Shown here: positions 12,670 to 33,315 of the stretch, piece after piece | Layout: every line of letters starts with the position of its first letter | Numbering within the stretch: position 1 is the stretch's first letter | DNA from: an uncultured Thermoguttaceae bacterium | GTDB lineage: Bacteria; Planctomycetota; Planctomycetia; Pirellulales; Thermoguttaceae | Assembly: GCA_934725735.1 (NCBI GenBank) | Contig: CAKVCP010000001.1 | Location: 1 to 63,047, forward strand | Length of the DNA stretch: 63,047 nucleotides | Direction: 5' to 3' | Notes under the pieces: generated by a model | Database searches by the model: none | What the model was told of the DNA's origin: nothing | What the model saw: the letters and a program-made list of their open reading frames with translations, nothing else | Position numbers and translations under genes: made by a program

Positions 12670-12744
12670 GGGCGCATAGCTCAGTTTGGTTAGAGCGCGT
12701 CCCTGATAAGGACGAGGTCCATGGTTCGAATCTATGTGCGCCCG
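12670..12744 (+). tRNA. tRNA-Ile (anticodon GAU), copy 1
   Basis: Manual cloverleaf: acceptor GGGCGCA/TGCGCCC, D stem GCTC/GAGC, anticodon stem CGTCC/GGACG with loop CTGATAA, T arm CATGG-TTCGAAT-CTATG (one G-U pair). No encoded CCA. Confidence 0.9.
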
Positions 12745-12757
12745 CTATAGAGAGTAG

Positions 12758-12858: not shown

Positions 12859-12933
12859 GGGCGCATAGCTCAGTTTGGTTAGAGCGCGTCCCTGATAAGG
12901 ACGAGGTCCATGGTTCGAATCCATGTGCGCCCG
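12859..12933 (+). tRNA. tRNA-Ile (anticodon GAU), copy 2
   Basis: Same sequence as copy 1 except that the T stem is fully Watson-Crick (CATGG/CCATG). Confidence 0.92.
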
Positions 12934-12939
12934 CTTTGA

Positions 12940-16937: not shown

Positions 16938-18119
16938 ATGTTCTTCAAAAATACAGGAATGTTTTATATTCCAGCGTTATGTCTGTTGGCGTTATACGCG
17001 TGTTGCGGGGACTCCGATTTGTCCCAGGACAAGTTTGTTCCTTTCGAAGGGGAATCGCTCTATTCGTCTCCCAACGGAAACGATATTGAGTTAATTTACC
17101 AAAGCGGCGAAGAAGAAAGCGTTGTTGAGACGAAAGTTGTTGCTTTTCCGAAGCGTCTTTCAGTTGGAGATACTTTCTATCTGGCCATATATAATAAAAA
17201 CTTGTCGGATAAAAGGATTAAGTATACGCTAAGTCCCTATTTCTATATTTCGCCTATGCTTTCATCTTCCTTGACGTCAGAAATCTACCAATGGAAGGAG
17301 GAAGTTGTCAACAGAATAAGATGTTTACGAATTTCTGAAGAACAAATTTTAGAGCCAGGCGCCGAAAGGATCTCGAGGAGCTGTTCGTGGGAATTTCCGC
17401 CTCTTGAAGATTGGAATGAGCCATTTTGGAAAGAACTTCGAGAGAAGCTTCCTCCTGAAGGGGCGAGTTGCCAACTACGTTTTTCTTTGACGACGACCGA
17501 AATTCGAGACGATCTCTCGACTGTTAATAGCTCTCACGACGTGGTTTTAGATCTTTGGGTGACGCCGCGTTCTGCAAAGGAAACCCAACTTTTAGAAGGA
17601 TGGCTACACTCGACTCCCGTAGATTTATTGCCCAACGATGTTGGCGACCGCAAAGAACCGAAGAAGATGGAAGGACTTCAGGGGGGCGTTGATCGTAAGG
17701 ACAAAATCAGCGAGGAGATATTGGATCTGAGGATGGAATGTCTCCAGGGGAGCGAGGAGAGTAAGATCAAAATCGGAGAGAACAGATGGGATCCATGGCT
17801 CTTCATTCGAACAGGAAATAGGAAACCGTCCGATCCGAATAATCCGACGACGTTAAAAGGATGGCGGGAATTGGAAGCCCAGTTGTCTCCAAGCGTGATG
17901 CGCGACGAGGTTCGTTTTACTCGACTGCAACTTGAGTATTATGCATCCTCTAGTCAATCCAAAAGAGAAGAGGCGAGAAAAGAACTCGTCGATTGGCTTC
18001 ATTCTTTGCCTCAAGCGCAACGCGTATCAATGGTTTCCAGCTTGAAATCGAAAGGAAATCTGTTCCGCAATACCAAACTACAAAAGGAGTATTTCGAGTT
18101 GATAAACGCGCTTGATTGA
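16938..18119 (+). CDS. Exported family-A paralog A1 (PLEDWN / GNRKPSDPN family, unknown function)
   Basis: RBS GAAGGAG. Signal or lipoprotein-like N-terminus (IPALCLLALYACCG). Motifs FPPLEDWNEPFWKELREKLPPEG and GNRKPSDPNNPTTLKGWRELEAQLSPSVMRDEVRFTRLQLEYY. About 85% identical to A6 over much of its length. Confidence 0.8.
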   Translation: MFFKNTGMFYIPALCLLALYACCGDSDLSQDKFVPFEGESLYSSPNGNDIELIYQSGEEESVVETKVVAFPKRLSVGDTFYLAIYNKNLSDKRIKYTLSPYFYISPMLSSSLTSEIYQWKEEVVNRIRCLRISEEQILEPGAERISRSCSWEFPPLEDWNEPFWKELREKLPPEGASCQLRFSLTTTEIRDDLSTVNSSHDVVLDLWVTPRSAKETQLLEGWLHSTPVDLLPNDVGDRKEPKKMEGLQGGVDRKDKISEEILDLRMECLQGSEESKIKIGENRWDPWLFIRTGNRKPSDPNNPTTLKGWRELEAQLSPSVMRDEVRFTRLQLEYYASSSQSKREEARKELVDWLHSLPQAQRVSMVSSLKSKGNLFRNTKLQKEYFELINALD

Positions 18120-18199: not shown

Positions 18200-19414
18200 A
18201 TGCATAATGCTTCAACGGTCAAAAAGACTCTCTTGGTTTCGACATATCACTTTTACCTTGATCCTTCAAATGGCGCGGCGATAACGACGCGCGAACTTCT
18301 TCATGCGTTGGCGTTACTCGGATGGCGCGTGCATACTTTTTGCGGATGCGCTCTTGATTTTCAAGATAAGAGGAATCCCGTCGAGTTTTTGGAGAGTCGA
18401 GGAATCGCGCCGAAACGAATTGTCGATTCCACTCAAACGGGCGGTTATTCGTTGGTAAATTTTCGAGACGGCGCCATTCATTCGACTTTATTTCTTCCCG
18501 AAGATAATTTTCATAAGCCTTCTCCGCAGATGGGAGAAATGTTTCTTCCTATCTTAAATCAAATCATCGGCGTCGCCAAACCTCAAATACTGGCGACATA
18601 CGGCAGTTATTGGCTAAGCGACCATATTCTTTCGGTCGCCAAAATCAATTCGTTAAAGACCGCTTTCCTTCTTCAGAATCATTCTTATAAGAATCTGAAA
18701 GACTTCGTAAAGGTTGATTTGACCATAACGCCGTCGAATTATACAGCGACTCATTACTCTGAACTTTTGGGACTCCCTTCCACCCCAATTGCTCCGATGA
18801 TGGATTGGGATAGTTTTATTTGCGACCCAACTTCTATGAAACGCAAGTATGTCGTGATGGTTAATCCTGAACCGAGCAAAGGGGGACTTTTAGTAGCGCG
18901 AATAGCGCATGAATTATGGAAGCGTCGCCCAGAGATTCCAATTTTGCTGGTGGAAGGAAGAGCCAAAGCTTCATGGTTGAAGCTTGCGGAGATTGATTGG
19001 ACTGGCGTTCGGAATGTCAATGTTATGGAATGTACGACAGATCCGCGCGATTTTTACAAAGAAGCGTATCTTGTTATTGTTCCTTCTTATTATCTAGAGA
19101 CTTTTTGTCGTGTCGCGGCAGAAGCTATGGCAAATGGAATTCCTGTTATTGTCAGTTCCCGAGGCGCGTTGCCTGAAGTTGTGGGAGACGCCGGTATTAT
19201 TTTAGACATACCGGCGAGATTGTTGGAGAATGATAAATTAACCCCCACGATAGGAGAGTCTGAAAAGTGGGTGGGGAATATTATTCTTTTATGGGACGAC
19301 AAAGAACTTTACGAGGATTATTCCCGACGCGCTCGGGAACGCGCTCAAAGATGGCGTCCTGAGATTATCGCGGCTCGTTACGACAACGCGCTAAGCGCCT
19401 TGATTGGGAGGTAA
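18200..19414 (+). CDS. GT4-family glycosyltransferase (GT-B fold)
   Basis: RBS AGGAGG. C-terminal motif ETFCRVAAEAMANGIPVIVSSRGALPEVVGDAGIIL is typical of Glycos_transf_1. Confidence 0.85.
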   Translation: MHNASTVKKTLLVSTYHFYLDPSNGAAITTRELLHALALLGWRVHTFCGCALDFQDKRNPVEFLESRGIAPKRIVDSTQTGGYSLVNFRDGAIHSTLFLPEDNFHKPSPQMGEMFLPILNQIIGVAKPQILATYGSYWLSDHILSVAKINSLKTAFLLQNHSYKNLKDFVKVDLTITPSNYTATHYSELLGLPSTPIAPMMDWDSFICDPTSMKRKYVVMVNPEPSKGGLLVARIAHELWKRRPEIPILLVEGRAKASWLKLAEIDWTGVRNVNVMECTTDPRDFYKEAYLVIVPSYYLETFCRVAAEAMANGIPVIVSSRGALPEVVGDAGIILDIPARLLENDKLTPTIGESEKWVGNIILLWDDKELYEDYSRRARERAQRWRPEIIAARYDNALSALIGR

Positions 19415-19513
19415 ATCTTCAAAGAACGACAGTGGAGCGCCGGATTATCAAAGCCCTATTGAATTGGCGTAGAACGGCGCGTCCAGGAGAATAAATTGTG
19501 TTTATGTTTTGAT

Positions 19514-20946
19514 ATGCTTCAAGCGTCCTGGGGGATCCGAGACGTTTGAAGACGTTCAATTGTTATTTTTACAGGACGACGACTGAATTGTGTCGTCGTC
19601 GTATTGTCCCTTTTTTTACTGAAGGAGTATTGAATGATTTGTATTAGTCATTTAATTGCAGTGGCTTTCAAGCGCCGGAATCCTTTGCATAAACGAAAGG
19701 ACTCGTCGTTGGCTAAGCAGACGACGCGCAAATTGCGGCTTGACGCCCTTGAGTCGCGCAACCTGCTTTCTTGCGCAGGATTCGCCGATCCGGGAGTTCT
19801 GACCGAATCTTTGGATAGTTCGATTGCCGAGTGTCGCGCGACTGAAGCGATCGCCACTCCGCGAGACGCCGATGTGATCTATTTCGATCTTGACGACGCG
19901 CCGTTCTACGGCCCGCTTCCCAAAGAGGCTCACGAAGCCTACAGGAGACTGATTCAAAAGGGGAGCGCGCTTTCTGCGGCGGAATCCGACGCGATTGTCG
20001 AGACTCATTCCCATGATAATACGCTCGAACCTGCCGAACGCGTTAAGCCGTTAGCAGCGAGTCAAGCGTCAATCAAGGAGTATAACTTCGACGCTGAAAC
20101 GTTCGACGTCGGCGGGACGACATATTCGTCTGGCTCCGGAGGAAGCGGTAGCGATAGCGGAGGCGGCGGCTCCAGCGGCGGTTCGACGTCGGGAGGCTCG
20201 ACGTCTAGCGGCGGAACGCATGAGTACTGCTCGCATAATCCTTGGCTTTGCGGCGGTCTTGGAAGCTCTAGTTCTGGAGGAGCTTCCGGCGGCAATTCGA
20301 AACCAGGCTTTTATCTGATAACGGATGATAGCGACGAAATAGTCCTAGTTCTTAACGCCGGCGACGAAGACGAAAATAGCGAGCAAAATGAAAATTTGCA
20401 GCTTGTTGCGTCCAACTTGCCCGTTAAGGAGGTCATTCCTACGAAGAATGGTACAAGTTATAGTTTTACGGTGAAGCTGGATGTTAGTTCTTATGGAACG
20501 ATAAACGGTTCCTTCAAGGTAGTCGACTGCGACGGTCGTGAAAGCCCTAGCGTGGACGTCTGCGTTCGTCCCGTAAAAATCACAGGATTTGAGATTCAGG
20601 AAAAGGCGCCAGGCGCTGAAACCTTTACGTCTCTTGAGGACGACCATGTCGTATGGCAAGAGAATTTGAATCGTGTTGGCTTCAATGTGTTAGGCGATAT
20701 TGACGGAGACGATCCCGACGATTGCGCGGCGTTTATGAGCCTTTTTACTTATCAAGTAAAAGGTCAAGCGTGGACGTGGGATTCGACGGAGAACGACTAC
20801 GTTCGTTCTAATACCTGGAATAGCTTTAACGGCCTTAACGGCGGTTTAGGCGTATACAATCTAGAGATTGATCTTTACGCAAATAATCAGAAATTTAAAT
20901 CGCTGCCTGATAATGATCGTTATTGCTTTAACGCAGTTTCGAGCGT
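19514..20946 (+). repeat. Segmental duplication, copy 1 (leader plus first ~438 codons of the protease gene)
   Basis: Offset to copy 2 is 3867 nt. There are 4 mismatches in the first ~21 nt, then no mismatch found by eye from 19535 to 20946 (1412 nt). All overlapping ORF translations in the track are identical between the copies. Confidence 0.9.
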
Positions 20947-22126
20947 CGCCTGGGAAAACGCGCCAATCGTGTCGACTCCAGGGGAGACTTCTTCTCATTT
21001 GAATTTAATTTCTGACGGTTCCAACGGGGTTAAGGCTTTTGTCGAACAACCGTTGAATACGTCGACAGGCGCATTGAATCCGGAGAAGAATATTGCGACG
21101 GCACGAGTGACGCTTGCTGTGCAACTTCCAGCTGGCATGACGGGAACGGTACACGTCGATTGGTTTGATCCCGATAATCCGATTGGTAGTACGATAACGG
21201 CGAGCGGATATGGGAAAGGAAAACGCGACAATCATGGCACAATTAGCCAGATTAGTAGCAATGTCTTGACGTTTGACGCCCAAACAAACACCCGTCTTCT
21301 TACGTTGACGATAGACGGGGGATATGCCGGCGATAATTATATATTAGCGGCGCATCCCAATTTGGGGGTTATGGGGCGAGCGGAAGTTCGCAATAATAAC
21401 GTAGTGGTTCCAGTGATTGACAACAACGCGTCTGGGGGTTCGTCTAGTAGCGGCGGAAGCTCTGAAGGCGACTATGCGTATGTTACCCTTGATAAAACCT
21501 CAATGCTTACCGTATGGCGCTCGTTGTGGGTGGAACGTGATCAGATGACTTATACTTCTGTGACTGGAAGTGTGGAAATCGCCGATCCCGTACCCATAGA
21601 TGGTATTGTTAGTTCCGAACTGGCTAGAGGATGTATAACGATCAGAGGGTATTCTCCTAATACACGTCCGACGGTTCCAGGAATTTATTCTTATGGTAGT
21701 ACGGAGGAATCCCAAAATTATACAGAGTCTCGCGATTTGGCTATGCCCACCAATACGTCGTGGACGTTGTTGTCTGTAGGAGGTTTTAAGTCTGATATCT
21801 GCGCTGGTTTCTTTGTGAGCAACAACATCGTGGTTTTCTCGGATTTAATCGTTGATGAAGTTCAAGACTGGAATAGGGATCATGAGACAACTTACTCCGC
21901 TTCAGACGCTGTAAGACGTACTGCATTGCATGAAATCGGTCATGCTTTTGGTTTGGGAGACATTACACTGGATGAAGGGGAAGAGATAACAGACGATCAC
22001 GTTGGCATTATGGTAACGGGGGCAGGATTTGATTGGGATTACCGCATGGCTCCTGAAAATATGGCTTTTACTATTGATAATCTTCAGCAAATACAAAGTC
22101 GGCTTTGCCCTGTGGGCAATTTCTAA
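19634..22126 (+). CDS. Large extracellular-type protein MP1: LExRxLL N-terminal motif, G/S-rich linkers, C-terminal metzincin-like Zn-protease module
   Basis: RBS GAAGGAG. N-terminus RKLRLDALESRNLLS. G/S tracts (SGSGGSGSDSGGGGSSGGSTSGGSTSSGG; ASGGSSSSGGSS). HEIGHAFGLGD (HExxHxxGxxD) followed by HVGIMV (Met-turn candidate). Confidence 0.85.
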   Translation: MICISHLIAVAFKRRNPLHKRKDSSLAKQTTRKLRLDALESRNLLSCAGFADPGVLTESLDSSIAECRATEAIATPRDADVIYFDLDDAPFYGPLPKEAHEAYRRLIQKGSALSAAESDAIVETHSHDNTLEPAERVKPLAASQASIKEYNFDAETFDVGGTTYSSGSGGSGSDSGGGGSSGGSTSGGSTSSGGTHEYCSHNPWLCGGLGSSSSGGASGGNSKPGFYLITDDSDEIVLVLNAGDEDENSEQNENLQLVASNLPVKEVIPTKNGTSYSFTVKLDVSSYGTINGSFKVVDCDGRESPSVDVCVRPVKITGFEIQEKAPGAETFTSLEDDHVVWQENLNRVGFNVLGDIDGDDPDDCAAFMSLFTYQVKGQAWTWDSTENDYVRSNTWNSFNGLNGGLGVYNLEIDLYANNQKFKSLPDNDRYCFNAVSSVAWENAPIVSTPGETSSHLNLISDGSNGVKAFVEQPLNTSTGALNPEKNIATARVTLAVQLPAGMTGTVHVDWFDPDNPIGSTITASGYGKGKRDNHGTISQISSNVLTFDAQTNTRLLTLTIDGGYAGDNYILAAHPNLGVMGRAEVRNNNVVVPVIDNNASGGSSSSGGSSEGDYAYVTLDKTSMLTVWRSLWVERDQMTYTSVTGSVEIADPVPIDGIVSSELARGCITIRGYSPNTRPTVPGIYSYGSTEESQNYTESRDLAMPTNTSWTLLSVGGFKSDICAGFFVSNNIVVFSDLIVDEVQDWNRDHETTYSASDAVRRTALHEIGHAFGLGDITLDEGEEITDDHVGIMVTGAGFDWDYRMAPENMAFTIDNLQQIQSRLCPVGNF

Positions 22127-22161
22127 TCACTGGATTCAAACAATAATAGAAGGTGAAAATC

Positions 22162-23361
22162 ATGCAAGCGTCAGTTCTTTTTAGCCTGTTTGCCTCGCTA
22201 TTGACGATCTTGTGGGGAGGATGGAGTAACGTAGGATATGCCGCAGAGTATCTTCCTGTCTCGGGAGAAGAATTGAACATTCCCCTCGCTCGTGAGTCGA
22301 CGGAGGATCTCTCGCTTGAGCGCACTCTGGCGATTTTCCCGGCTGAGGTTTACTTTGGCGATTCATTGTACTTGCTCCATTGCGACTTTAACAAATCAGA
22401 CTCAACGCTGAAAGGTCTTATGGATTTGCCATATTCTTTACGCGTTGGTTTTAACGGAGTCCAAATCACGTCAGAGCTCTCTGAATATTCTTACGAATAT
22501 GTTTTCGAAAAACAAAATAGTTTTTTGGATGACGCTCTTTATTCGTACAGACCCGATAGATTTTTACCGGGCGAACGAAAAAGTGGATTCTATACGATCA
22601 TTGATTTGCCCCCCTTAGAGGATTGGGATGATCCTTTTTGGAAGGATATACGAGAGAAAATGACTCCAGAGGGAATTGCGTGTTCTTTAAGCTTTCGAAT
22701 CTCTGTTGGACGATTCGCTTTGGCAGACGCCCCAAAAAATGTTGAGTCTTCGCCTGCCGAAAGGAAGTTGACTACGACAGAGAATGTTAAGGCGTCCTTT
22801 GTGATCAAACCTCGTCCAAACGATGAACTATCGCTCTTAGAAAAGTGGTATAACAACACGCCCAAGGAATTGTTTCCAGTAAGGAAGGGGTCTTATAAGG
22901 TTCCTTCAAGTGGGAGCGTCATTCCTGATAATAAGGAAAGTCACATCAAGGTGGGGGATAAGGATTTTTCCCCATGGCGTTTGATTCGAGTCGGAAATCG
23001 CAAACCCTCCGATCCCAATAATCCGACGACGCTAGAGGGATGGCAGAAGCTTGAAGCGCAATTATCGCCCAGTACGATGCGCGACGAGATTCGTTTAACG
23101 CGTCTTCAATTGGAGTACTATTCAGCCGACAGCGAAGAACGTTCTGAATACTGGAAAAACGAGCTGGTAAATTGGCTTTCAACTCTTCCAGAGTCTCAAC
23201 GAACGGCGTACGTTGGAATGATCTGGCGTCAAGGCGTTGGTCAGACAATTCCGGAATATTCCAGTAAGAGTAAGGCTTTGACGATTGCTCTTGAACCGCT
23301 TATGGGAGACGGAACGAAGTATTTTTTTAAAAAGGTAGAAAAACTTTACAGACAACCATAA
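22162..23361 (+). CDS. Exported family-A paralog A2
   Basis: Starts 36 nt after the MP1 stop (ATG 22162 with GAAGGTG RBS; the ORF track uses GTG 22153). Has a signal peptide, LPPLEDWDDPFWKDIREKMTPEG, and GNRKPSDPNNPTTLEGWQKLEAQLSPSTMRDEIRLTRLQLEYY. Confidence 0.8.
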   Translation: MQASVLFSLFASLLTILWGGWSNVGYAAEYLPVSGEELNIPLARESTEDLSLERTLAIFPAEVYFGDSLYLLHCDFNKSDSTLKGLMDLPYSLRVGFNGVQITSELSEYSYEYVFEKQNSFLDDALYSYRPDRFLPGERKSGFYTIIDLPPLEDWDDPFWKDIREKMTPEGIACSLSFRISVGRFALADAPKNVESSPAERKLTTTENVKASFVIKPRPNDELSLLEKWYNNTPKELFPVRKGSYKVPSSGSVIPDNKESHIKVGDKDFSPWRLIRVGNRKPSDPNNPTTLEGWQKLEAQLSPSTMRDEIRLTRLQLEYYSADSEERSEYWKNELVNWLSTLPESQRTAYVGMIWRQGVGQTIPEYSSKSKALTIALEPLMGDGTKYFFKKVEKLYRQP

Positions 23362-23380
23362 GTCTATATTAGTTTTTGCA

Positions 23381-24813
23381 ATGCTTCAGACGTCTTGGGG
23401 TATCCGAGACGTTTGAAGACGTTCAATTGTTATTTTTACAGGACGACGACTGAATTGTGTCGTCGTCGTATTGTCCCTTTTTTTACTGAAGGAGTATTGA
23501 ATGATTTGTATTAGTCATTTAATTGCAGTGGCTTTCAAGCGCCGGAATCCTTTGCATAAACGAAAGGACTCGTCGTTGGCTAAGCAGACGACGCGCAAAT
23601 TGCGGCTTGACGCCCTTGAGTCGCGCAACCTGCTTTCTTGCGCAGGATTCGCCGATCCGGGAGTTCTGACCGAATCTTTGGATAGTTCGATTGCCGAGTG
23701 TCGCGCGACTGAAGCGATCGCCACTCCGCGAGACGCCGATGTGATCTATTTCGATCTTGACGACGCGCCGTTCTACGGCCCGCTTCCCAAAGAGGCTCAC
23801 GAAGCCTACAGGAGACTGATTCAAAAGGGGAGCGCGCTTTCTGCGGCGGAATCCGACGCGATTGTCGAGACTCATTCCCATGATAATACGCTCGAACCTG
23901 CCGAACGCGTTAAGCCGTTAGCAGCGAGTCAAGCGTCAATCAAGGAGTATAACTTCGACGCTGAAACGTTCGACGTCGGCGGGACGACATATTCGTCTGG
24001 CTCCGGAGGAAGCGGTAGCGATAGCGGAGGCGGCGGCTCCAGCGGCGGTTCGACGTCGGGAGGCTCGACGTCTAGCGGCGGAACGCATGAGTACTGCTCG
24101 CATAATCCTTGGCTTTGCGGCGGTCTTGGAAGCTCTAGTTCTGGAGGAGCTTCCGGCGGCAATTCGAAACCAGGCTTTTATCTGATAACGGATGATAGCG
24201 ACGAAATAGTCCTAGTTCTTAACGCCGGCGACGAAGACGAAAATAGCGAGCAAAATGAAAATTTGCAGCTTGTTGCGTCCAACTTGCCCGTTAAGGAGGT
24301 CATTCCTACGAAGAATGGTACAAGTTATAGTTTTACGGTGAAGCTGGATGTTAGTTCTTATGGAACGATAAACGGTTCCTTCAAGGTAGTCGACTGCGAC
24401 GGTCGTGAAAGCCCTAGCGTGGACGTCTGCGTTCGTCCCGTAAAAATCACAGGATTTGAGATTCAGGAAAAGGCGCCAGGCGCTGAAACCTTTACGTCTC
24501 TTGAGGACGACCATGTCGTATGGCAAGAGAATTTGAATCGTGTTGGCTTCAATGTGTTAGGCGATATTGACGGAGACGATCCCGACGATTGCGCGGCGTT
24601 TATGAGCCTTTTTACTTATCAAGTAAAAGGTCAAGCGTGGACGTGGGATTCGACGGAGAACGACTACGTTCGTTCTAATACCTGGAATAGCTTTAACGGC
24701 CTTAACGGCGGTTTAGGCGTATACAATCTAGAGATTGATCTTTACGCAAATAATCAGAAATTTAAATCGCTGCCTGATAATGATCGTTATTGCTTTAACG
24801 CAGTTTCGAGCGT
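23381..24813 (+). repeat. Segmental duplication, copy 2
   Basis: See copy 1. The identity block is 23402-24813. The first difference after the block is gagcgtCgcc versus gagcgtTgcc. Confidence 0.9.
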
Positions 24814-26026
24814 TGCCTGGGAAAACTCTCAAGAGTCGTTAACTCCAGGGGAGACTTCTTCTCATTTGAATTTAATTTCTGACGGTTACAACGGCTATAA
24901 GGCGTTTGTCGAACAACCGTTGAATACGTCGACAGGCGCATTGAATCCAGAGAAGAATATTGCGACGGCACGAGTGACGCTTGCTGTGCAACTTCCAGTC
25001 GGCATGACGGCGACGGTATGTGTCGATTGGTTTGACCCCGATAATCCGATTGGCAGTACGATAACGGCGAGCGGATATGGAAAAGGAAAACGCGACAATC
25101 ATGGCACAATTAGCCAGATTAGCAGCAATGTCTTGACGTTTAACGTGGTAACGGGACCCCGCTCCGGCTTCGTTACGTTGACAATTAACGGGGGATATGC
25201 CGGCGATAATTATATATTAGCGGCGCATCCCAATTTTGGGGTTATGGAACGGGCTGAAGTTCGTAACAATAACGTAGTCGTTCCAGTGACCGACAACAAC
25301 GCGTCTGGCGGTTCGTCCAGTAGCGGCGGAAGCTCTGGAGGCGACGACGCTTATGCAGCTTTCCTTGATAAAACCTCAATGCTTACCGTATGGCGCTCGT
25401 TGTGGGTGGAACGGGATCGGATGACTTTCACTTTCCCAACTGAAAGCGTGCAAACAGCTGCTTCTGTTTTGATTGACGGAATCGTCGAAACTCAATTAGC
25501 TCGTGCCTGCGTTGATGTGAAGGAATATTCTCCTAATAACTTTGTGTTGGTTCAAGGAGTGGAAAAGGATGATCCGCAGGCGTACTGGGGAAATTATCTT
25601 ACGTATCGTGATTGTCCTGTTTCGTCAAATTCATTTTGGGCTATCTATTCGATCGGCGCTTTTAATACAGTAAGAGGCGCTTGTGCAACACGGGGGGGAA
25701 ATACCTTGGTTGCTTATAACTGGAATATCGCCGCTGAGCTTGCCAAGTGGAATGACAAGCATCCGAACTCTACGATTTCAGTCGCTTCCTTGCTCAATCG
25801 AAGGATCATTCTTCATGAACTGGGGCATTTTTTGGGATTGCAAGACGGCTCCACCGGAGTTATGTGGTCGGAAGAAAAGGAGGAGGATGAGGATCTTAAT
25901 CTTCAAGCTCTAATCGATTCTGAAAACATCGTGTTCACGATCGACAACTTGAAAACGATTCAATCGCAAAGTATGCCAATCGTCGTCCAGGGGTTTGAAG
26001 ATTATCTTTTGCGACATAAGAACTGA
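23501..26026 (+). CDS. Large extracellular-type protein MP2: same N-terminal ~438 aa as MP1, divergent C-terminal metzincin-like module
   Basis: Relative to MP1, aa 1-~438 are identical, ~439-640 are about 85-90% identical, and the last ~200 aa are strongly divergent. HELGHFLGLQD (HExxHxxGxxD) followed by GVMW. Confidence 0.85.
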   Translation: MICISHLIAVAFKRRNPLHKRKDSSLAKQTTRKLRLDALESRNLLSCAGFADPGVLTESLDSSIAECRATEAIATPRDADVIYFDLDDAPFYGPLPKEAHEAYRRLIQKGSALSAAESDAIVETHSHDNTLEPAERVKPLAASQASIKEYNFDAETFDVGGTTYSSGSGGSGSDSGGGGSSGGSTSGGSTSSGGTHEYCSHNPWLCGGLGSSSSGGASGGNSKPGFYLITDDSDEIVLVLNAGDEDENSEQNENLQLVASNLPVKEVIPTKNGTSYSFTVKLDVSSYGTINGSFKVVDCDGRESPSVDVCVRPVKITGFEIQEKAPGAETFTSLEDDHVVWQENLNRVGFNVLGDIDGDDPDDCAAFMSLFTYQVKGQAWTWDSTENDYVRSNTWNSFNGLNGGLGVYNLEIDLYANNQKFKSLPDNDRYCFNAVSSVAWENSQESLTPGETSSHLNLISDGYNGYKAFVEQPLNTSTGALNPEKNIATARVTLAVQLPVGMTATVCVDWFDPDNPIGSTITASGYGKGKRDNHGTISQISSNVLTFNVVTGPRSGFVTLTINGGYAGDNYILAAHPNFGVMERAEVRNNNVVVPVTDNNASGGSSSSGGSSGGDDAYAAFLDKTSMLTVWRSLWVERDRMTFTFPTESVQTAASVLIDGIVETQLARACVDVKEYSPNNFVLVQGVEKDDPQAYWGNYLTYRDCPVSSNSFWAIYSIGAFNTVRGACATRGGNTLVAYNWNIAAELAKWNDKHPNSTISVASLLNRRIILHELGHFLGLQDGSTGVMWSEEKEEDEDLNLQALIDSENIVFTIDNLKTIQSQSMPIVVQGFEDYLLRHKN

Positions 26027-26074: not shown

Positions 26075-27532
26075 ATGATAAAAAAATTTTGGAGAGTTCC
26101 CGTCGTCGCGGCTCTTCTGGCATGCTTATGCGTTTTGAACAGGGCTCCCGCCGATAGCTATGTTCCTCAATCAGCCGAAACTGCTACGTTTAAGGGAATC
26201 CGTCATGATGGGGACAAATCGGAATGGTCGTTTGAAATTTTTCCTAAGGAAATGACGTATGGCGATTTCGCGTATGTTCTTGAACGCAGAACCAACGTCT
26301 CTGGCGAGACGATCAAGAATTATCCGATTTTCGGGGATCCGTTCGTCAAAGTTTGGGAAGAGCCCAATTCTGTTGTCCTAACGGCTGAAGGGATCGAGGG
26401 AGAATATCGTTGGAAGCAGGAGTACCCGTCGAGTTTCGAGAGCGATTACTTTTGTTTCGATGGTAAGGATCTCGCCCCAAACGAAAGCGTGATAAAATCG
26501 AGACTAGTTCTCGATTTTCCCCCTGTGGAGGATTGGAACTCGCCATTTTGGAAGGCTTTACGCGATAAGGTAACCCCCGAAGGAATTAAATGTTCGTTGA
26601 AGTTTAATTATCCTCACTCCTTGAAAACAGAAGACAAGTCTCGTCCAAAATACGTGCAAGAAAGCGTTTGTTACGAATTTCTCATGAAATCAAGGCCTGA
26701 AAGTGAAATGAGTCTCTTGGAAGATTGGGTTAAGGCGTCAAGCGACAAATATCTTCCGTATGAGACGGAGTGGAAAAAATTTTGGAAAGGCCGAGGAAAG
26801 AAGAGTACAAATCAGATTTCTCTTGGGTTAAACAAGTATAATGTGAGCTCCTTTGTTAGACTTGGAAATAGAAAACCGTCTGACCCGAACTCTCCGACCT
26901 CGCTGAAAGGGTGGCGGGAACTTGAATCCAGCCTAGCCCCAAGCTCGATGCGCGACGAGATTCATTTAACTTGTCTTTTGCTGGAGTACTACGGTTCGAT
27001 TACTAACAAAGGGAAAGCTGAATCAAGCCGAAAAATAGCGGATTGGTTGGCGAGTTTGCCTGCCCCTCAGCGCGTAGCGCTGAGCTCTTATTTGGTTACC
27101 GACGGCGAGAGCCTTTGCGACGAGAGTCTCAAGGAAGATTACTATAAGTTGACGAGGGCTATCTACAATCTCTTGGAGCCTTCCGCTCAACGCGTCGTAT
27201 ATCAGCGCGAGTATGATAGGGGAGAGGAGTCTTTACTGGTTCCGCCGACCGGAATGGTGGTACAACGCACCCTTGAGGACGATATTCGACCGACCGCCGA
27301 AGATTTCGCCCAGGGCAAATGCGAGCTTGCCGACGGTTTTCGATTGACGACGCTAACCGGACCGTCGAAAACGATTCCGGCTGTTCTGAAATTCGTTTCC
27401 TATGACGCCGAAACACAAATGGCGACGATGAGAACTCGATCAGGATATCCATTATACTTTTCTCTCAATGAATTTAGCGATCAGGATCGATTGTACATCT
27501 TGGAGGAAAGTAAAAAGAGCGTGAAACCGTAA
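26075..27532 (+). CDS. Exported family-A paralog A3 (long form with C-terminal SHD1-like extension)
   Basis: Starts 49 nt after the MP2 stop. Lipobox-like LLAC. FPPVEDWNSPFWKALRDKVTPEG; GNRKPSDPNSPTSLKGWRELESSLAPSSMRDEIHLTCLLLEYY. Has an extra ~130 aa C-terminal region. Confidence 0.8.
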   Translation: MIKKFWRVPVVAALLACLCVLNRAPADSYVPQSAETATFKGIRHDGDKSEWSFEIFPKEMTYGDFAYVLERRTNVSGETIKNYPIFGDPFVKVWEEPNSVVLTAEGIEGEYRWKQEYPSSFESDYFCFDGKDLAPNESVIKSRLVLDFPPVEDWNSPFWKALRDKVTPEGIKCSLKFNYPHSLKTEDKSRPKYVQESVCYEFLMKSRPESEMSLLEDWVKASSDKYLPYETEWKKFWKGRGKKSTNQISLGLNKYNVSSFVRLGNRKPSDPNSPTSLKGWRELESSLAPSSMRDEIHLTCLLLEYYGSITNKGKAESSRKIADWLASLPAPQRVALSSYLVTDGESLCDESLKEDYYKLTRAIYNLLEPSAQRVVYQREYDRGEESLLVPPTGMVVQRTLEDDIRPTAEDFAQGKCELADGFRLTTLTGPSKTIPAVLKFVSYDAETQMATMRTRSGYPLYFSLNEFSDQDRLYILEESKKSVKP

Positions 27533-27544
27533 CGCGTTCTAAGA

Positions 27545-27665
27545 GTAAAGCAATGCATGAAGAGGTAACGCTCAAAATCCGCTCTTGGATTGGAGGCGTC
27601 GCTCCTATTTCATCCCCTAATAGGACGGCGATAACGACGCGCAAGCCTCTTCATGTATTTGCTTG
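27545..27665 (+). pseudogene. Decayed 5' fragment of a GT4 glycosyltransferase paralog
   Basis: Aligns with the RBS and first ~40 codons of the 18200 gene (aagcaatgcat...ggcgataacgacgcgc...cttcatg). It encodes MHEEVTLKIRSW...AITTRKPLH and then stops. Confidence 0.7.
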
Positions 27666-27700
27666 CCGGTGGCAAACACAACGTTTGTAGTGGAAATGAA

Positions 27701-28891
27701 ATGAACAATAAATTTCTTATCCTGACGTTTCTATGTCACATGTTTCTGGGCGCCGTTGATGAAAAATTTGCGTCGCTCTTATTAGCCAACGACTCAATTA
27801 AGGTTATTGAGTTTCCTTCGGAAATTATGCCGGAAGAGACGCAAATTAGGAAGTATTCTGAGATATATCCCACAGAATTACATTTAGGCGATCCTATTTA
27901 CATTGTTACCTATGTTGAAAATCTTTCCGACCACGATATCAAGATATGGCCGAATTATCAGACTCCGTATAATAATGTGGCATATGATAGGCACAGCGTT
28001 TTTAGCGACGGAATAGACGGAGATTATTTTTGGATTACAGAGAGTCCTGTTCCTACTTCCGGCTGTCGCTATTATCCTCCGCTATGGTTAAAACCTGGGT
28101 GTAAAGCTATCGATAGTTGCGCTGTTCTTGAATTTCCTCCTCTTGAGGATTGGAACAAGCCTTTTTGGACTAATTTGAAGGAAAAAATGCTCGCCAACGG
28201 CGAGGTTTCATGCACTTTACGCGTCAACTTTACCAATGCCAAAGAACGGACGGTTCAAAATGAAGCCGAAGTTGAAACGCCGACTGAGTCAACGCCGCGA
28301 TTAGACGTTGACGAGTCGCTTGTGCGCGACGTTTCTCTGAAGGTGATGAAGAGTTCAACGTTTTTTCTTGACGTCTGGAGCCAGGAGATACCGGAAGAAT
28401 TTCTTCCGGAAGATTTTCCTCAGAATCAAACATGCTTTTATAAGAGTTCCAGGGATATTGACGCGATGTTGAAGATCATGCCGCAGATAAAGATCGGAAA
28501 TTCTTATCTCTATTATGACAACGTCGTGAGAGCCGCTTTTCGGAAGCCGCCTACGACCAAATTCCCGTCGACTATTGAGAAATGGCGGCAACTTGAATCG
28601 TTTTTTTCCGGCTCTTTAAAGGACGAGTTCACCTATATTCGGATGGCGTTAGAATACTATGACGCTCAGGAGGGGAAAGAGTCGGATATCGCTTTGCAAA
28701 AATTGCTGTCTTGGATGAAGAATCTCCCTTTCCCTCAATTGTACGTAATGGCTAAACTTCAAGTTTTACAGATTGAAAGGCATATTAGTCCGGAACTACC
28801 TAAAGAGAGCGGATTGCGCCCCAAGAGGACTAGGTTGCATGAAGAACTTAATTCTCTAATACAGACTTGTGAAGCTCATGTCAACGATTGA
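27701..28891 (+). CDS. Exported family-A paralog A4 (most divergent member)
   Basis: The likely start is MNNKFLILTFLCHMFLGA (ATG 27701); the track start at 27653 lies inside the GT remnant. FPPLEDWNKPFWTNLKEKMLANGEVSC; degenerate core FRKPPTTKFPSTIEKWRQLE...LKDEFTYIRMALEYY. Confidence 0.75.
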   Translation: MNNKFLILTFLCHMFLGAVDEKFASLLLANDSIKVIEFPSEIMPEETQIRKYSEIYPTELHLGDPIYIVTYVENLSDHDIKIWPNYQTPYNNVAYDRHSVFSDGIDGDYFWITESPVPTSGCRYYPPLWLKPGCKAIDSCAVLEFPPLEDWNKPFWTNLKEKMLANGEVSCTLRVNFTNAKERTVQNEAEVETPTESTPRLDVDESLVRDVSLKVMKSSTFFLDVWSQEIPEEFLPEDFPQNQTCFYKSSRDIDAMLKIMPQIKIGNSYLYYDNVVRAAFRKPPTTKFPSTIEKWRQLESFFSGSLKDEFTYIRMALEYYDAQEGKESDIALQKLLSWMKNLPFPQLYVMAKLQVLQIERHISPELPKESGLRPKRTRLHEELNSLIQTCEAHVND

Positions 28892-28939: not shown

Positions 28940-29117
28940 CTACTTGCCATATTATTGCATGAAATTTGGATTGGCAGACGTTGACGTCTCTGAACTTGGT
29001 TACGGGAAGCGGTTGGTTTCACAGACTGCTTCCTGACAATCTAAGTTTCACGGTAGATAATCTTCACCTAATTCAGGAAAGACACGAACCTGTGACAAAT
29101 TTCTCCATCATTGAGTG
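28940..29117 (+). pseudogene. Decayed 3' end of a metzincin-like protease paralog
   Basis: ttgcatgaaatttgg (LHEIW) aligns to the LHEIGH motif of MP1, with an internal deletion that destroys HExxH. PDNLSFTVDNLHLIQERHEPVTNF aligns to the MP1 tail PENMAFTIDNLQQIQSRLCPVGNF. Confidence 0.7.
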
Positions 29118-29150
29118 AGACCCATCAGTATAACTAACATGAGGTTTAGA

Positions 29151-29885
29151 ATGAAACCAACGAAGCGCTTTCTTAGGATCTTAACGTTGTTTGCGACGCT
29201 TTGCTGCTTGACTGTTGGAGCGCTGGCGAAAGGCGAAGAGTATGCGCCTTTTTCCGGTCAGGAATTGGACGCTGAAGCTCCGAGGTTTCAAGACGGCGTG
29301 AAACGCGGCGTTTTGACGTATCCGTTCGAAACGTACTATGGCGATTCTCTTTACATTCTAAGTTATCGAGTTAACGAATCTGGTGAAACGATCCGTAATT
29401 TTCAAAAGGAAAGAATCGTCGGGCATAATCTACATTTTTACGAGGTAACAATAACCTCAAAGGATATAGATTTGTCGCATGAATGGGCGTTTGAACGTCA
29501 AAGCGTTTATGCAGGCGACGTTAAATATGCGTTTATGCCTGGAAATTTTGAACCGGGCGTAAGAGAAACAGGTTTTTATACGGCGCTCGATTTTCCTCCC
29601 CTTGAAGATTGGAACGATCCCTTTTGGAAGGATTTACGAGAAAAAATGACGCCTGAAGGCGTTAAGTGCACTCTAAGTTTTCGCCTTGGAGTAGGTCATG
29701 CCTTTTGCAGCCGTCGAGTTTCTCTTCATGAACTTGGGCATGCCTTTGACTTGATGGATAAAACGGCAGAGCAAGATAAGGGGGTTATGTCGTACAAAGG
29801 TATATATACGGGATTGTCTCCTGAAAATTTGGAGTTTGAAGATTTTGAACTTCGGTTGATTCAGTCTAAATCAAAACCTGTCTAA
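29151..29885 (+). CDS. Chimeric ORF A5: signal peptide plus N-terminal half of family A, fused to the last ~60 aa of a metzincin-like module
   Basis: Family-A sequence runs up to FPPLEDWNDPFWKDLREKMTPEGVKCTLSFRLGVG. It is followed by HAFCSRRVSLHELGHAFDLMDKTAEQDKGVMSY...ENLEFEDFELRLIQSKSKPV (HExxH, Met-turn and protease tail). The GAGG RBS favours ATG 29151. Confidence 0.7.
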   Translation: MKPTKRFLRILTLFATLCCLTVGALAKGEEYAPFSGQELDAEAPRFQDGVKRGVLTYPFETYYGDSLYILSYRVNESGETIRNFQKERIVGHNLHFYEVTITSKDIDLSHEWAFERQSVYAGDVKYAFMPGNFEPGVRETGFYTALDFPPLEDWNDPFWKDLREKMTPEGVKCTLSFRLGVGHAFCSRRVSLHELGHAFDLMDKTAEQDKGVMSYKGIYTGLSPENLEFEDFELRLIQSKSKPV

Positions 29886-29929: not shown

Positions 29930-31006
29930 ATGAAAAATAATCCACAAATATTTCTGTGCATAATGGCGCTTAGCGTTGGATATTTGTTCTTTTTCAACAT
30001 ATCCTTCGCATCTTCGTTTCCCAACGGAAACGATATCGAGTTAATTTTCCAAAGCGCAGAAAAAGAAAGCGTCGTTGAGACGAAAGTCGTTGCTTTTCCG
30101 CAACGTCTTTCGGTGGGAGATACTTTCTATCTGACTATTTATAATAAAAACTTGTCGGATAAAAGGATTCGATATACGTTAAGTCCCTATTTCTATATAT
30201 CTCCTATCCTTTCCTCTCCTTTGACGTCAGAGACATATCAATGGAAGGAAGAAGTTATCGACACGGCAAGGTTTGAATTATGTGTTCAAGAACAAATTTT
30301 AGAACCTGGCGCCAAAGACTTGTCGAGAAGCTGTTCATGGGAATTTCCACCTCTTGAAGACTATAACGCGCCATTTTGGAAGGAACTTCGAAAGAACCTT
30401 CCTGTTGCAGGGGTGAGTTGTCAACTACGTTTTTCTTTGACGGTGACAGAAAGTCGAGACGATCTTTCTACCGTTGAGAGCACGCACGACGTAGTTTTAG
30501 ACCTTTGGGTGACGCCGCGTTCTGAGCAGGAAACACAACTTTTAGAAGGATGGCTGAACTCGACCCCCGTAGGTTTGTTGCCCAATGAGGTCTCAGATCG
30601 TAAAGAACCGAAGATGAATACGGGACGTCTCCTGGGGAGCGCTGATAGTAAGATCAAAATCGGATGGAGTAGATGGGACCCTTGGCTTTTTATTCGAGTA
30701 GGAAATAGAAAACCGTCCGACCCGAATAATCCGACGACGCTAAAAGGATGGCGTGAACTGGAAAACCAATTATCTCCTAGCACGATGCGCGACGAGATTC
30801 GTTTAACGCGGTTGCAACTTGAGTATTACTCCGCTTCAAGTCAGAAAAAAAGAGAAGAGGCGAAAAAGGAACTCGTCGATTGGCTTCGTTCTTTACCTCA
30901 AGCGCAACGCACTTCAATGGTATCCAGCTTGAAATCGAAGGAAAATCTTTTCCGCAACACGAAACTCAAGAAGGAGTACTTCGAATTGATGAACATGCGG
31001 TATTAG
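29930..31006 (+). CDS. Exported family-A paralog A6
   Basis: RBS GAGGA. Has a signal peptide, FPPLEDYNAPFWKELRKNLPVAG, and GNRKPSDPNNPTTLKGWRELENQLSPSTMRDEIRLTRLQLEYY. It is the closest paralog of A1. Confidence 0.8.
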   Translation: MKNNPQIFLCIMALSVGYLFFFNISFASSFPNGNDIELIFQSAEKESVVETKVVAFPQRLSVGDTFYLTIYNKNLSDKRIRYTLSPYFYISPILSSPLTSETYQWKEEVIDTARFELCVQEQILEPGAKDLSRSCSWEFPPLEDYNAPFWKELRKNLPVAGVSCQLRFSLTVTESRDDLSTVESTHDVVLDLWVTPRSEQETQLLEGWLNSTPVGLLPNEVSDRKEPKMNTGRLLGSADSKIKIGWSRWDPWLFIRVGNRKPSDPNNPTTLKGWRELENQLSPSTMRDEIRLTRLQLEYYSASSQKKREEAKKELVDWLRSLPQAQRTSMVSSLKSKENLFRNTKLKKEYFELMNMRY

Positions 31007-31253: not shown

Positions 31254-32719
31254 ATGATAAAACGATTTTGGAGAGTACCTATAGTTGTAGCTCTTCTGGC
31301 GTGCTTATGTATTTTGAATAGGACGCCCGCTGATAGCTATGTTCCTCAATCCTCAGAGACCGCTACGGTTAAGGGAGTACGTCTGGATGGGGAAAAACCG
31401 AAACTTCATTTGAAATTTTTCCTAAAGAAGCGACGTATGGGGATTTCGCATACGTTCTTCAGCGCGCAACCAATGTTTCAGACGAGACGATCAAGAGTTA
31501 TCCAACTTTTGATTACCCTGTCGTCGGCGTTCTTGAGGCGCCCGATTCTGTCGTTATAACGGCGGAAGGTATTGATGGAGAATATCGTTGGAAGCAGGAA
31601 TACTGGGCTGATATCGATTTTGAGTATGCGTATCCTCCTGCGAAGGATCTAGCTCCAAACGATAGCGTGATAAAATCGAGGCTAATTTTAGATTTTCCCC
31701 CAGTGGAGGACTGGAACGCGCCATTTTGGAAGAGCTTACGAGAAAGGATGACTCCCGAGGGAGTTAAATGTTCATTAACGTTTAATTATTCTTACTCCTC
31801 GTTTACAGAAGCAAATTCTCGCCCCAAATACGCACAAGGAAGCGTGCGTTATGAATTTCTAATGAAATCAAGACCTGAAAAGGAAATGAGTCTTTTGGAA
31901 GATTGGGTTAAAGCGTCAAGCGACGAATATCTTCCATATGAGACGAGCGCTAAAAAGGTCTGGAAGGGTCGAGGAAAGAAGAGTACGAATCAGATTTCTC
32001 TTGGATTAAACAAGTATAATCTGAGTACGTTTATTAGACTTGGGAATAGAAAACCGTCGGATCCGAACTGTCCGACTTCTTTGAGTGGATGGCGGGAACT
32101 TGAAGATAGTTTGGCTCCAAGTTCGATACGCGACGAGATTCATTTAACCTGTCTTTTGTTGGAGTACTATAGCTCTATGACCGACAAAGGGGAAGCGGAA
32201 TCAAGTCAAAAAATAGTAGACTGGCTAGCGAGTTTGCCTGATCCTCAGCGCGTGGCCTTAAGCTCCTATTTAGTCACCGACGGCGAGGATCTTTGCGACA
32301 AGAATCTCAAGGAGAAATATTACAAGTTGACGAGGTCGATTTATCCTCTCTTAGAACCTTCCGCTCAACGTATCGTATATAAACGCGAGGCTTCTAGAGG
32401 GGAGGCGACTTCACTGGTTCCGCCAAATTCAATGAAGGTGGAACGTCGCTTTGAAGACGATATTCGACCGACAGACGATGATTTGGCGCTAGGTAAAAGC
32501 GAACTTGCCGACGGTTTTAGATTGACGACGTTAATCGGTCCGTCAGGGACGATGACGGCTGTTCTAAAATTTGTTTCATATGACGTCGAAAAACAAATGA
32601 CGACGATGAAAACTCGCTCAGGTTACTCTTGCAGCTTTAATCTCAATGAATTTAGCGAACAGGATCGTTTGTATATCTTAGAGGAAAATGAAAAGAGTGT
32701 GAAACATAACTCATTTTAG
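31254..32719 (+). pseudogene. Family-A paralog A7 (A3-like long form) disrupted by a single -1 frameshift
   Basis: ORFs 31185..31559 and 31667..32719 are collinear with A3. Relative to A3, one nt is missing near 31395-31410 (gggaaaaaccgaaacttcat versus ggggacaaatcggaatggtcgt). The downstream frame is open across the gap. Confidence 0.8.
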
Positions 32720-32850
32720 GAGTAAAGCAACGCATGAAGATTCAGCGGTCATAAAGCGCTCCAGGTTTTGCCGTATCGCTTTTGTCTTGATCCTTCTAAT
32801 GGAGCGACGATAACGACGGGCGAACCTCTTCATGCGTTGGCTTTAGGTGG
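32720..32850 (+). pseudogene. Second decayed 5' fragment of a GT4 glycosyltransferase paralog
   Basis: Aligns to the RBS and 5' end of the 18200 gene. The ATG is mutated to ACG, and there is a frame disruption and an in-frame stop within ...ggagcgacgataacgacggg.... Confidence 0.65.
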
Positions 32851-33315
32851 AGGGAATACGACCTGTGAAAACTGCCGGAGATCAATAATTCGTCGTCGAT
32901 GTACGGCAAAAAATGAGTGATAGAATGGCTCAAGTCGGCGCCTGAGGCTCTGCGATTAGTCTTAACGACGTCTATGGCTAGCGCTACAGGTAGATTTAAC
33001 AAAACCTATTTACGAGAGAAGAATTTAGAACTCTTGAACTTCTTAAAACAGAAGGACTCTTTGACGAAGAGGGGCTAAGGGAGTTTAATCTTATCTAAAT
33101 AGAAGCTTTGAAGCGAAGAAGAGTCTTTCGATAAAGAGACGACGTCTCGATTAAAGGAAGACTCTTCGTTTACTTCTTGCTCTAAAGATCCGGTAGCATT
33201 CTCCGACGCTTGTTATTGGCGAGACATATTATCTTTGGAACTAAAGCTCTAGGGATGAATTGAGCGCGCGTAACCGCTATAATGATTTGGACAGATCTTC
33301 ACAGGAGGAAAGGGA

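Follow-up and report, generated by a model that had tools for sequence, protein, structure and literature searches.

What do the seven related genes that crowd a low-GC island in the genome of an uncultured Thermoguttaceae bacterium encode? The island occupies approximately 16.3-33.3 kb of the stretch analyzed here (contig CAKVCP010000001.1 of assembly GCA_934725735.1, positions 1 to 63,047; this whole stretch is referred to below as the window). Its GC content is 0.43-0.48, compared with 0.55-0.61 in the flanks, and it is bounded by uvrB and an acetyltransferase gene. Seven homologous open reading frames (ORFs), A1 through A7, lie within it, all on the + strand, and we term them family A. A preliminary description of the sequence took family A alone and missed its near-obligate pairing with adjacent genes for metzincin-type proteins of 830 and 841 amino acids (aa), here called B1 and B2. 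Below, this pairing is traced through other genomes and metagenomes, and we suggest tentatively that A is an exported inhibitor or immunity-type partner of B.

Clustering of the genes that neighbour A loci yielded two recurrent families, B and a cytoplasmic glycosyltransferase of family 4 (GT4). The gene order is B-A(-GT), with the A start 0-150 nt after B or overlapping B. To avoid ascertainment bias, 58 metagenome loci from the Joint Genome Institute (JGI) were fetched by B alone, and B ORFs were counted if their C-terminal end was intact and followed by at least 600 nt of sequence. A family A ORF directly follows B in 39 of these 45 B ORFs. Three of the six exceptions have in its place an ORF of ~415 aa with a signal-like hydrophobic N-terminus and a weak match to the beta-sandwich of family A described below. 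Repeated units, B-A-B-A(-B-A), are found in loci L088, L094 and L116. Among loci ascertained by A in GTDB genomes, B lies upstream of only 17 of the 65 A genes that stand first or alone. B is thus nearly always found with A, whereas A is often found alone or in arrays of 5-7 copies. In one apparent natural B-A fusion, the 1169-aa metagenome protein P0230, the A part keeps its own signal peptide; the fusion is therefore probably the result of stop-codon loss or of a gene-calling artefact, and we did not use it as evidence.

B1 consists of an N-terminal LRLDALESRNLL motif (19733-19768; 23600-23635 in B2), Gly/Ser linkers and a C-terminal M10-like metzincin domain. The N-terminal RKLRLDALESRNLL motif of B gives a sub-threshold match to the Pfam family Planc_extracel (E = 0.35). 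Both B1 and B2 are classed as secreted, and neither has a classical hydrophobic signal peptide. The last ~200 aa of B carry the conserved elements LTVWRTLWVERD, ELARAC, FWT, LHEIGHALGL(S)H/D, VM and F(T)xxxLxxIQS; the zinc-site motif HExxHxxGxxH/D is present in most B sequences, and all B C-termini align as a single metzincin family. A profile of this region matches the catalytic domain of matrix metalloproteinase 16 (MMP-16) in the PDB with E = 8e-6, and the zinc helix, the VM Met-turn and the LxxIQ of the C-helix are aligned. Serralysins are matched at ~1e-3, and EcxA is among the weak PDB matches. Single B sequences score 14-20 bits against Pfam Peptidase_M10, for which the cut-off is 24, so that B is only a distant M10-like metzincin relative. 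Judged by these motifs and alignments, B is a protease, an M10-like metzincin of the matrixin/serralysin type. No prodomain was recognized in B by Pfam. Duplicated antisense ORFs of 100-120 aa lie on the - strand inside B1 (19652-20014, 20345-20659) and B2 (23519-23881, 24212-24526); they arise from the repeat that B1 and B2 share and most likely do not code for protein.

The similarity among the seven A copies is strong enough to establish homology rather than chance or compositional resemblance, since a hidden Markov model (HMM) of the family matches them with E = 1e-54 to 1e-157; these values also dispose of the compositional artefact that the preliminary description had named as a possible refutation. 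That description counted seven paralogs. Seven homologous copies are indeed present, but only five (A1, A2, A3, A4 and A6) are intact, A5 being a deletion chimera and A7 a frameshifted gene. Its two near-invariant blocks are real: block 1 (FPP[LV]EDWN.PFWK.LR.K..PEG..C) occurs in all seven copies, and block 2 ([IV]R.GNRKPSDPN.PT..GW..LE..L.PS..RDE....T.L.LEYY), which had been ascribed to every member, occurs in A1, A2, A3, A6 and A7. Block 2 is degenerate in A4 (VRAAFRKPPTTKFPSTIEKW), as had been noticed, and it is absent from A5. The C-terminal end of A5 is instead an in-frame fusion to the last 59 aa of a B protein of the type found in locus L006 (HELGHAFDLMD...LIQSKSKPV), with 96.6% identity to the L006 tail. 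A7 is either a pseudogene or yields a truncated product whose translation begins at 31667. The split A7 gene calls recur in a sibling strain of 99.4% identity, so that the single-nucleotide deletion would be shared by both strains. The hydrophobic N-terminal signal claimed for the family is found in every copy. The "LLAC" cited as lipoprotein-like is not a canonical lipobox, and A3 additionally has an APA|D signal-peptidase-I site.

The absence of any nameable domain in family A, remarked on in the preliminary description, is upheld by every search. Pfam and NCBIfam returned only noise (best E = 0.0065 or weaker, far under curated cut-offs), PADLOC returned no match, and the family profile had zero matches to PDB sequences even at E = 10. 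Among ~330 database homologs there is no precomputed Pfam domain, except SHD1 in one of them, and a second profile search seeded with the most divergent members recovered only more unnamed proteins. The structure prediction proposed earlier was carried out with AlphaFold2 on a 41-sequence alignment and gave a confident model of A1 (pLDDT 82.4, pTM 0.80). The model begins with a signal helix and a disordered linker, followed by a beta-sandwich at residues 50-153; after it come block 1, as a loop and a helix, then a long beta-hairpin, block 2 as a well-ordered loop and, at the C-terminus, a helical bundle. When the full-length A1 model was searched with Foldseek, the sandwich alone was matched, by arrestins, transglutaminase barrels, fibronectin type III (FnIII) domains and macroglobulin (MG) domains, with E values down to 2e-5; TM-scores of ~0.2 and root-mean-square deviations (RMSD) of 8-10 A indicate that this is a generic sandwich resemblance only. 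A model of the core alone (A6 residues 136-358; pLDDT 86.5, pTM 0.82) had no significant match among PDB folds (best E 0.58) or among the viral folds of BFVD. Family A is thus predicted to be an exported protein of two domains behind a signal peptide, an Ig/E-set-like sandwich and an alpha/beta core of unrecognized fold that contains blocks 1 and 2. The preliminary description called the N-terminal region variable. It is faster-evolving, but it is also a homologous beta-sandwich with a motif of its own, FP.E...GD..Y.....N.S. A Pfam scan of the A3 and A7 tails found nothing, and HMM positions 395-475 match Pfam-confirmed SHD1 repeats in homologs P0123 and P0124; an SHD1-like domain probably makes up the C-terminal extension of A3 and A7. 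A signal-like h-region is present in 147 of 158 full-length homolog N-termini, and a crude regular expression finds a lipobox-like Cys in 24 of the 158.

An exhaustive profile search identified 412 clusters of family A at 50% identity among 1.84 billion representatives, and the named matches are all "hypothetical protein" entries from Thermoguttaceae metagenome-assembled genomes (MAGs). GTDB species representatives contain 76 loci, with many loci per genome, and nearly all derive from goat, buffalo, deer or human gut or rumen MAGs assigned to Thermoguttaceae or "Planctomycetaceae". The family is confined to gut, rumen and similar anaerobic communities, and a scan of viral contigs found no relatives. 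Tandem arrays of 4-7 copies are common. One of these, a five-gene array at 6.8-15 kb with no obvious partner gene, is intact in L004 and frameshift-split in L005, two near-identical JGI contigs; the fragments in L005 reflect either strain-level decay or assembly error. Several ruminant-gut MAGs have 4-7 A genes directly after a beta-galactosidase of glycoside hydrolase family 2 (GH2; 1300-1450 aa, with an inserted Laminin_G_3 domain), as at L029 1452-5819 and L082 1-3663. These occurrences may represent one syntenic locus or may reflect a further functional setting. Some homologs carry two A modules, and others are fused to WD40 domains, to a phosphodiesterase together with Laminin_G_3, or to SHD1.

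The distribution and the fusions raise the question of whether A has a function of its own in the pathway of B. It could be an exported glycan- or protein-binding protein with a lectin- or carbohydrate-binding-module-like sandwich, or a new hydrolase, so that B and A (with GT4 or GH2) would work as one module against glycoproteins of the host or its diet, mucin for example. It could also be the targeting subunit of a two-component secreted factor. The latter has a precedent in EcxAB, an AB5 toxin with a metzincin A subunit, and EcxA appears among the weak matches of the B profile. Restriction of the family to gut-like communities, the GH2 and GT4 genes adjoining some copies, and the fusions to Laminin_G_3 plus phosphodiesterase and to SHD1 all fit such a role. 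The invariant acidic pairs of A (E157-D158 and D323-E324) and its many conserved Trp, Pro and Arg residues are compatible with a catalytic or ligand pocket. The core, however, resembles no carbohydrate-active enzyme, lectin or toxin B-subunit fold, and apart from S319 there is no conserved His/Cys/Ser catalytic set. Adjacency of A to 87% of B genes, and the exchange of B C-termini together with A (see below), would also be unexpected for a loosely co-functioning enzyme. We consider an independent function of this kind doubtful.

Preference for an inhibitor or immunity-type partner derives in part from the arrangement of the genes in the window (Table 1). Identity between B1 and B2 is 100% for aa 1-400, 80-94% from there to aa 647 and only 24-40% from aa 648 onward. 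The corresponding DNA is a direct repeat of 2.08 kb (19507-21578 and 23374-25454; 96% nucleotide identity) that covers the upstream region and the first ~650 codons of both genes. The A genes that follow, A2 and A3, are only ~33% identical. Because the N-terminal parts of B are identical whereas the C-terminal ends and the A genes diverge, the divergent unit is the metzincin domain together with A. No other sequence in the island comes close to the 2.08-kb repeat as a substrate for recombination, and the repeat is the edge of a swappable [metzincin + A] cassette.

Comparison with a sibling strain supplies a second view of this arrangement. Collinearity of its 191-kb contig, L001, with the window stops at position 20613, within B1, and resumes at 27674, shortly before A4. 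In L001 a third B C-terminus immediately precedes A4, and A2, B2 and A3 are missing; the window has kept A4 without that B C-terminus. Tail remnants of two different B types lie before A5 and A6, indicating that the B genes were deleted and the A genes kept, and A6 is the partner of the B gene whose tail persists in A5. A 127-aa metzincin fragment followed by A was likewise found in L063. Given these B remnants and the GT4 remnants after A3 and A7, the array appears to be composed of B-A(-GT) cassettes that kept A through repeated losses of B and GT4.

Table 1. Genes and gene remnants of the low-GC island. Positions are those of the window; blocks 1 and 2 are the conserved blocks of family A.
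Feature	Position	Strand	Remarks
A1	16938..18119	+	Intact, 393 aa; block 1 17394-17471, block 2 17805-17942; orphan, B gene absent upstream (UvrB end at 16290)
GT4 glycosyltransferase	18200..19414	+	No signal peptide; Pfam Glycos_transf_1 3e-14
B1	19634..22126	+	830 aa; metzincin domain from ~21506 (LTVWR); HEIGHAFGLGD 21929-21961
A2	22153..23361	+	Intact; start 26 nt past B1 stop; cognate partner of B1
B2	23501..26026	+	841 aa; HELGHFLGLQD 25814-25846
A3	26075..27532	+	Intact, 485 aa; start 48 nt past B2 stop; extra C-terminal extension, probably SHD1-like
GT4 5'-end remnant	27619..27662	+	After A3; repeat family match
A4	27653..28891	+	Intact, divergent, block 2 degenerate; orphan in window
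Metzincin tail remnant, B1/L028-type	28996..29115	+	Last ~40 aa; before A5; tblastn 70% identity, E = 2e-13
A5	29115..29885	+	Chimera: A N-terminal half through block 1 (29592-29669), junction ~29706, then metzincin tail
Metzincin tail remnant, L006-type	29706..29882	+	Last 59 aa; before A6, within A5
A6	29930..31006	+	Intact, 358 aa, 77% identity to A1
A7	31254..32719	+	A3 paralog with 1-nt deletion near 31404 relative to A3
GT4 5'-end remnant	32753..32860	+	After A7

The A copies that have lost B do not decay. In 122 copies drawn from many genomes, 63 positions reach 80% conservation or more, and copies without B retain these positions as well as copies linked to B (0.92 and 0.90, respectively). 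This equal conservation suits a function of A independent of B. It bears differently on another explanation, in which A works as a private helper for B, be it a foldase in the periplasm or tethered to the membrane, a prodomain acting in trans, or an adaptor for the secretion or anchoring of large secreted enzymes. The lipase foldase Lif and the maturase PrtM are analogous helpers. Tight operon coupling of B and A is what a helper would show, as is the lack of a Pfam-recognizable prodomain in B; the variable sandwich could bind the cargo, and the invariant core could attach the protein to common machinery for export or anchoring. A is also found directly after another large secreted enzyme, the GH2 protein with Laminin_G_3, and occurs in fusions with enzyme and binding modules. 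A private helper would, however, be expected to decay once its client is gone, and orphan A genes and B-less arrays of 5-7 A genes are common and under purifying selection. It is B that decays while the adjacent A stays intact, and the GH2 context is maybe one syntenic locus common to related MAGs. A helper role for A seems unlikely to us.

The strong constraint on both blocks that these 63 positions display, with faster-evolving flanks, agrees with the conserved core recognized earlier; the flanks may act as the variable specificity regions that the preliminary description envisaged. That description also suggested computing dN/dS across the paralogs. For the young pairs, A1/A6 and A3/A7, the NG86 method gave dN/dS values of 0.08-0.41 across all regions, and since these are below 0.5 throughout there is no sign of positive selection in these pairs; in old pairs the synonymous sites are saturated. 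These values bear on a further possibility, namely that duplication, frameshift and deletion have diversified A as a variable antigen of the surface or periplasm, an adhesin or a decoy, and that its adjacency to B is incidental. Tandem arrays whose copy number differs between strains, frameshifted copies in the window (A7) and in L005 relative to L004, and lipobox-like signals in some copies would all be expected of such a protein. Low dN/dS throughout would not be, and the A7 frameshift is a plain 1-nt deletion rather than a change in a repeat tract. The family, moreover, lacks relatives on viral contigs, and the adjacency to B is far too regular for coincidence. We regard an antigen or decoy as very improbable.

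Block 2 is also repeated at the nucleotide level among A1, A2, A3, A6 and A7, at the positions first given and with 70-84% identity. The accompanying proposal that this repeat acts as a recombination substrate driving rearrangement of the array was not borne out. The proportion of synonymous differences (pS) in blocks 1 and 2 is 0.54-0.93 between distant paralogs, which is near saturation, and the nucleotide similarity is thus a by-product of constraint on the amino acid sequence. Paralogs share uninterrupted identical stretches of at most 9-30 nt, or 13-29 nt when the longest stretch lies in block 2. The visible junctions lie in the 2-kb near-identical 5' parts of B, at the A4 start and in A5 just past block 1 (~29706); none is in block 2. 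Recent gene conversion was considered and rejected: synonymous sites are saturated in old pairs, and pS in block 2 is only slightly lower.

How might an inhibitor or immunity-type partner work? Asymmetric dependence, shared export and orphan arrays are together what is expected of a protective protein of this type. The signal-like h-regions of the A N-termini suggest that A and B share a compartment. Expressed from one operon, A would meet the protease domain of B in the periplasm or at the cell surface and bind it, acting there as a protective inhibitor or immunity-type factor. The near-invariant core of A would contact invariant parts of the protease, while the sandwich and tails vary. The metzincin domain and A would be exchanged together behind the conserved N-terminal part of B, and loss of B with retention of A would generate orphan arrays, which could protect against B variants from neighbouring strains. 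More speculatively, the block 1 and block 2 loops, rich in Pro, Trp, Arg and Asp, might plug the invariant active-site cleft, and the E-D pair of PPLEDW might be akin to the aspartate switch of metzincin prodomains; alternatively, these loops might bind the invariant motifs of B. Both the binding of A to B and the inhibition of B are inferred from the arrangement and properties of the genes.

Several observations weigh against an inhibitor or immunity function. About three quarters of A loci have no B, and some A arrays adjoin the GH2 beta-galactosidase with Laminin_G_3 instead. A small size and diversification in step with the toxin are typical of classical immunity proteins. A, in contrast, is large, with 350-485 aa, and conservation of its core far exceeds that of the protease domain: between L006 and L007, A is 95% identical and the B C-terminus 67%. 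Identity of A is correlated only weakly with that of the B C-terminus (rho 0.26), no more strongly than with the non-catalytic part of B, and the correlation is confounded by shared ancestry. The WD40, phosphodiesterase plus Laminin_G_3 and SHD1 fusions and the GH2 context suggest a module with a more general role, in binding or in catalysis. The PDB fold search revealed no structural resemblance of A to known protease inhibitors, and positive selection was not detected in the young pairs. Finally, the linked GT4 gene is not accounted for.

Known systems offer partial parallels to the B-A pair. The potempins of Tannerella forsythia are exported inhibitors whose genes are paired in operons with genes for secreted peptidases, and each is specific for its neighbouring peptidase; they are lipoproteins of 98-132 residues, encoded upstream of the peptidase (PMC9890683). 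In both systems the inhibitor or A gene adjoins a secreted peptidase gene and is co-oriented with it, and the non-catalytic part is nearly the same from one peptidase to the next, whereas the catalytic part differs. The KLIKK peptidases of T. forsythia include the metzincins karilysin and mirolysin. Unlike potempins, A proteins are 350-485 aa, are encoded downstream of the peptidase, appear to have mostly non-lipoprotein signals, typically form orphan arrays and match no PDB entry in sequence or, for the core, in fold. Serralysins (M10B) provide a second parallel, an M10-type metzincin with an adjoining exported partner gene: they are encoded beside the signal-peptide-bearing inhibitor Inh/AprI, a beta-barrel of ~100 aa that protects the periplasm of the producer. 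Family A has no Pfam match to the Inh family and no match to solved serralysin-inhibitor chains. There is no type I secretion system operon here, in contrast to serralysin systems, and B is a multidomain planctomycete protein.

Polymorphic toxin and immunity loci can include orphan modules, and zincin-like peptidase toxin domains are found in them, also in planctomycetes (PMC3482391). Several features of the B-A loci are of this kind: a conserved N-terminal part followed by a divergent C-terminal domain, a partner gene directly downstream, strains that differ in cassettes of C-terminal domain plus partner, and remnants of C-terminal domains beside retained partner genes. Orphan immunity arrays are a precedent for copies of A that lack a partner. 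In contrast to polymorphic toxins, all B C-termini have one fold, the metzincin fold, rather than unrelated toxin folds, and the partner A is large and more conserved than the putative toxin B. Pfam searches of B found no RHS, filamentous haemagglutinin, LXG/WXG or PAAR module and no trafficking module of type V, VI or VII secretion systems. As for structural relatives of A itself, its N-terminal domain (approximately residues 50-210 of A1) resembles arrestins, transglutaminase C-barrels, the FnIII domain of GH3 enzymes and the MG domains of alpha-2-macroglobulin (A2M), a likeness that leaves the conserved core uncovered. Family A resembles protease-inhibitor and toxin-immunity cassettes in kind, and has none of the sequence or structural hallmarks by which members of those systems are assigned.

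Family A and its pairing with B are both absent from the curated libraries searched here, and the literature searched on related terms held no description of them. If A is an inhibitor or immunity protein, it would constitute a new structural class of inhibitors of metzincins (MMP-like proteases) and would point to protease-based antagonism or self-protection in Planctomycetota. A bolder extension is that A proteins are new-fold exported metzincin inhibitors, that B-A is a planctomycete-specific polymorphic secreted-protease system used in strain competition in the gut, and that arrays without B are acquired immunity banks. We offer this extension as conjecture, with appreciable reservations. 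If it is true, no antagonism or defence system of this kind would have been described in Planctomycetota before, and no cognate immunity family would previously have been known for a toxin domain of the metzincin type. Should A prove not to be an inhibitor, B-A still offers a clean, testable two-gene module for the function of two "dark" families. Almost all that is known of gut and rumen Thermoguttaceae comes from MAGs, and there has been essentially no study of the biology of their secreted proteins. For these bacteria we define a protein family that lacks annotation and whose core has a confidently predicted fold without a match, the near-obligate association of this family with distant M10-like metzincins, and a layout of cassettes and orphan arrays that differs between sibling strains.

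GT4 is a recurrent third gene of the cassette (B-A-GT). Of 107 A-ascertained cases, 12 have GT4 directly after A, and several metagenome loci show the same order. One idea for its role is glycosylation of the Ser/Gly-rich linkers of B. A match to the Pfam GT4-conflict family was considered as a sign of a conflict system and dropped, being marginal and overshadowed by generic GT1/GT4 models. Promoters and terminators were predicted in the island at background counts. Elsewhere in the window, two tandem tRNA-Ile(GAT) genes (12670-12745 and 12859-12934) lie ~3.5 kb upstream of the island, and a second low-GC patch, at 44740-48121, encodes a McrBC-type restriction pair consisting of an AAA_5 ATPase (5e-13) and McrC (Pfam McrBC, 4e-47).

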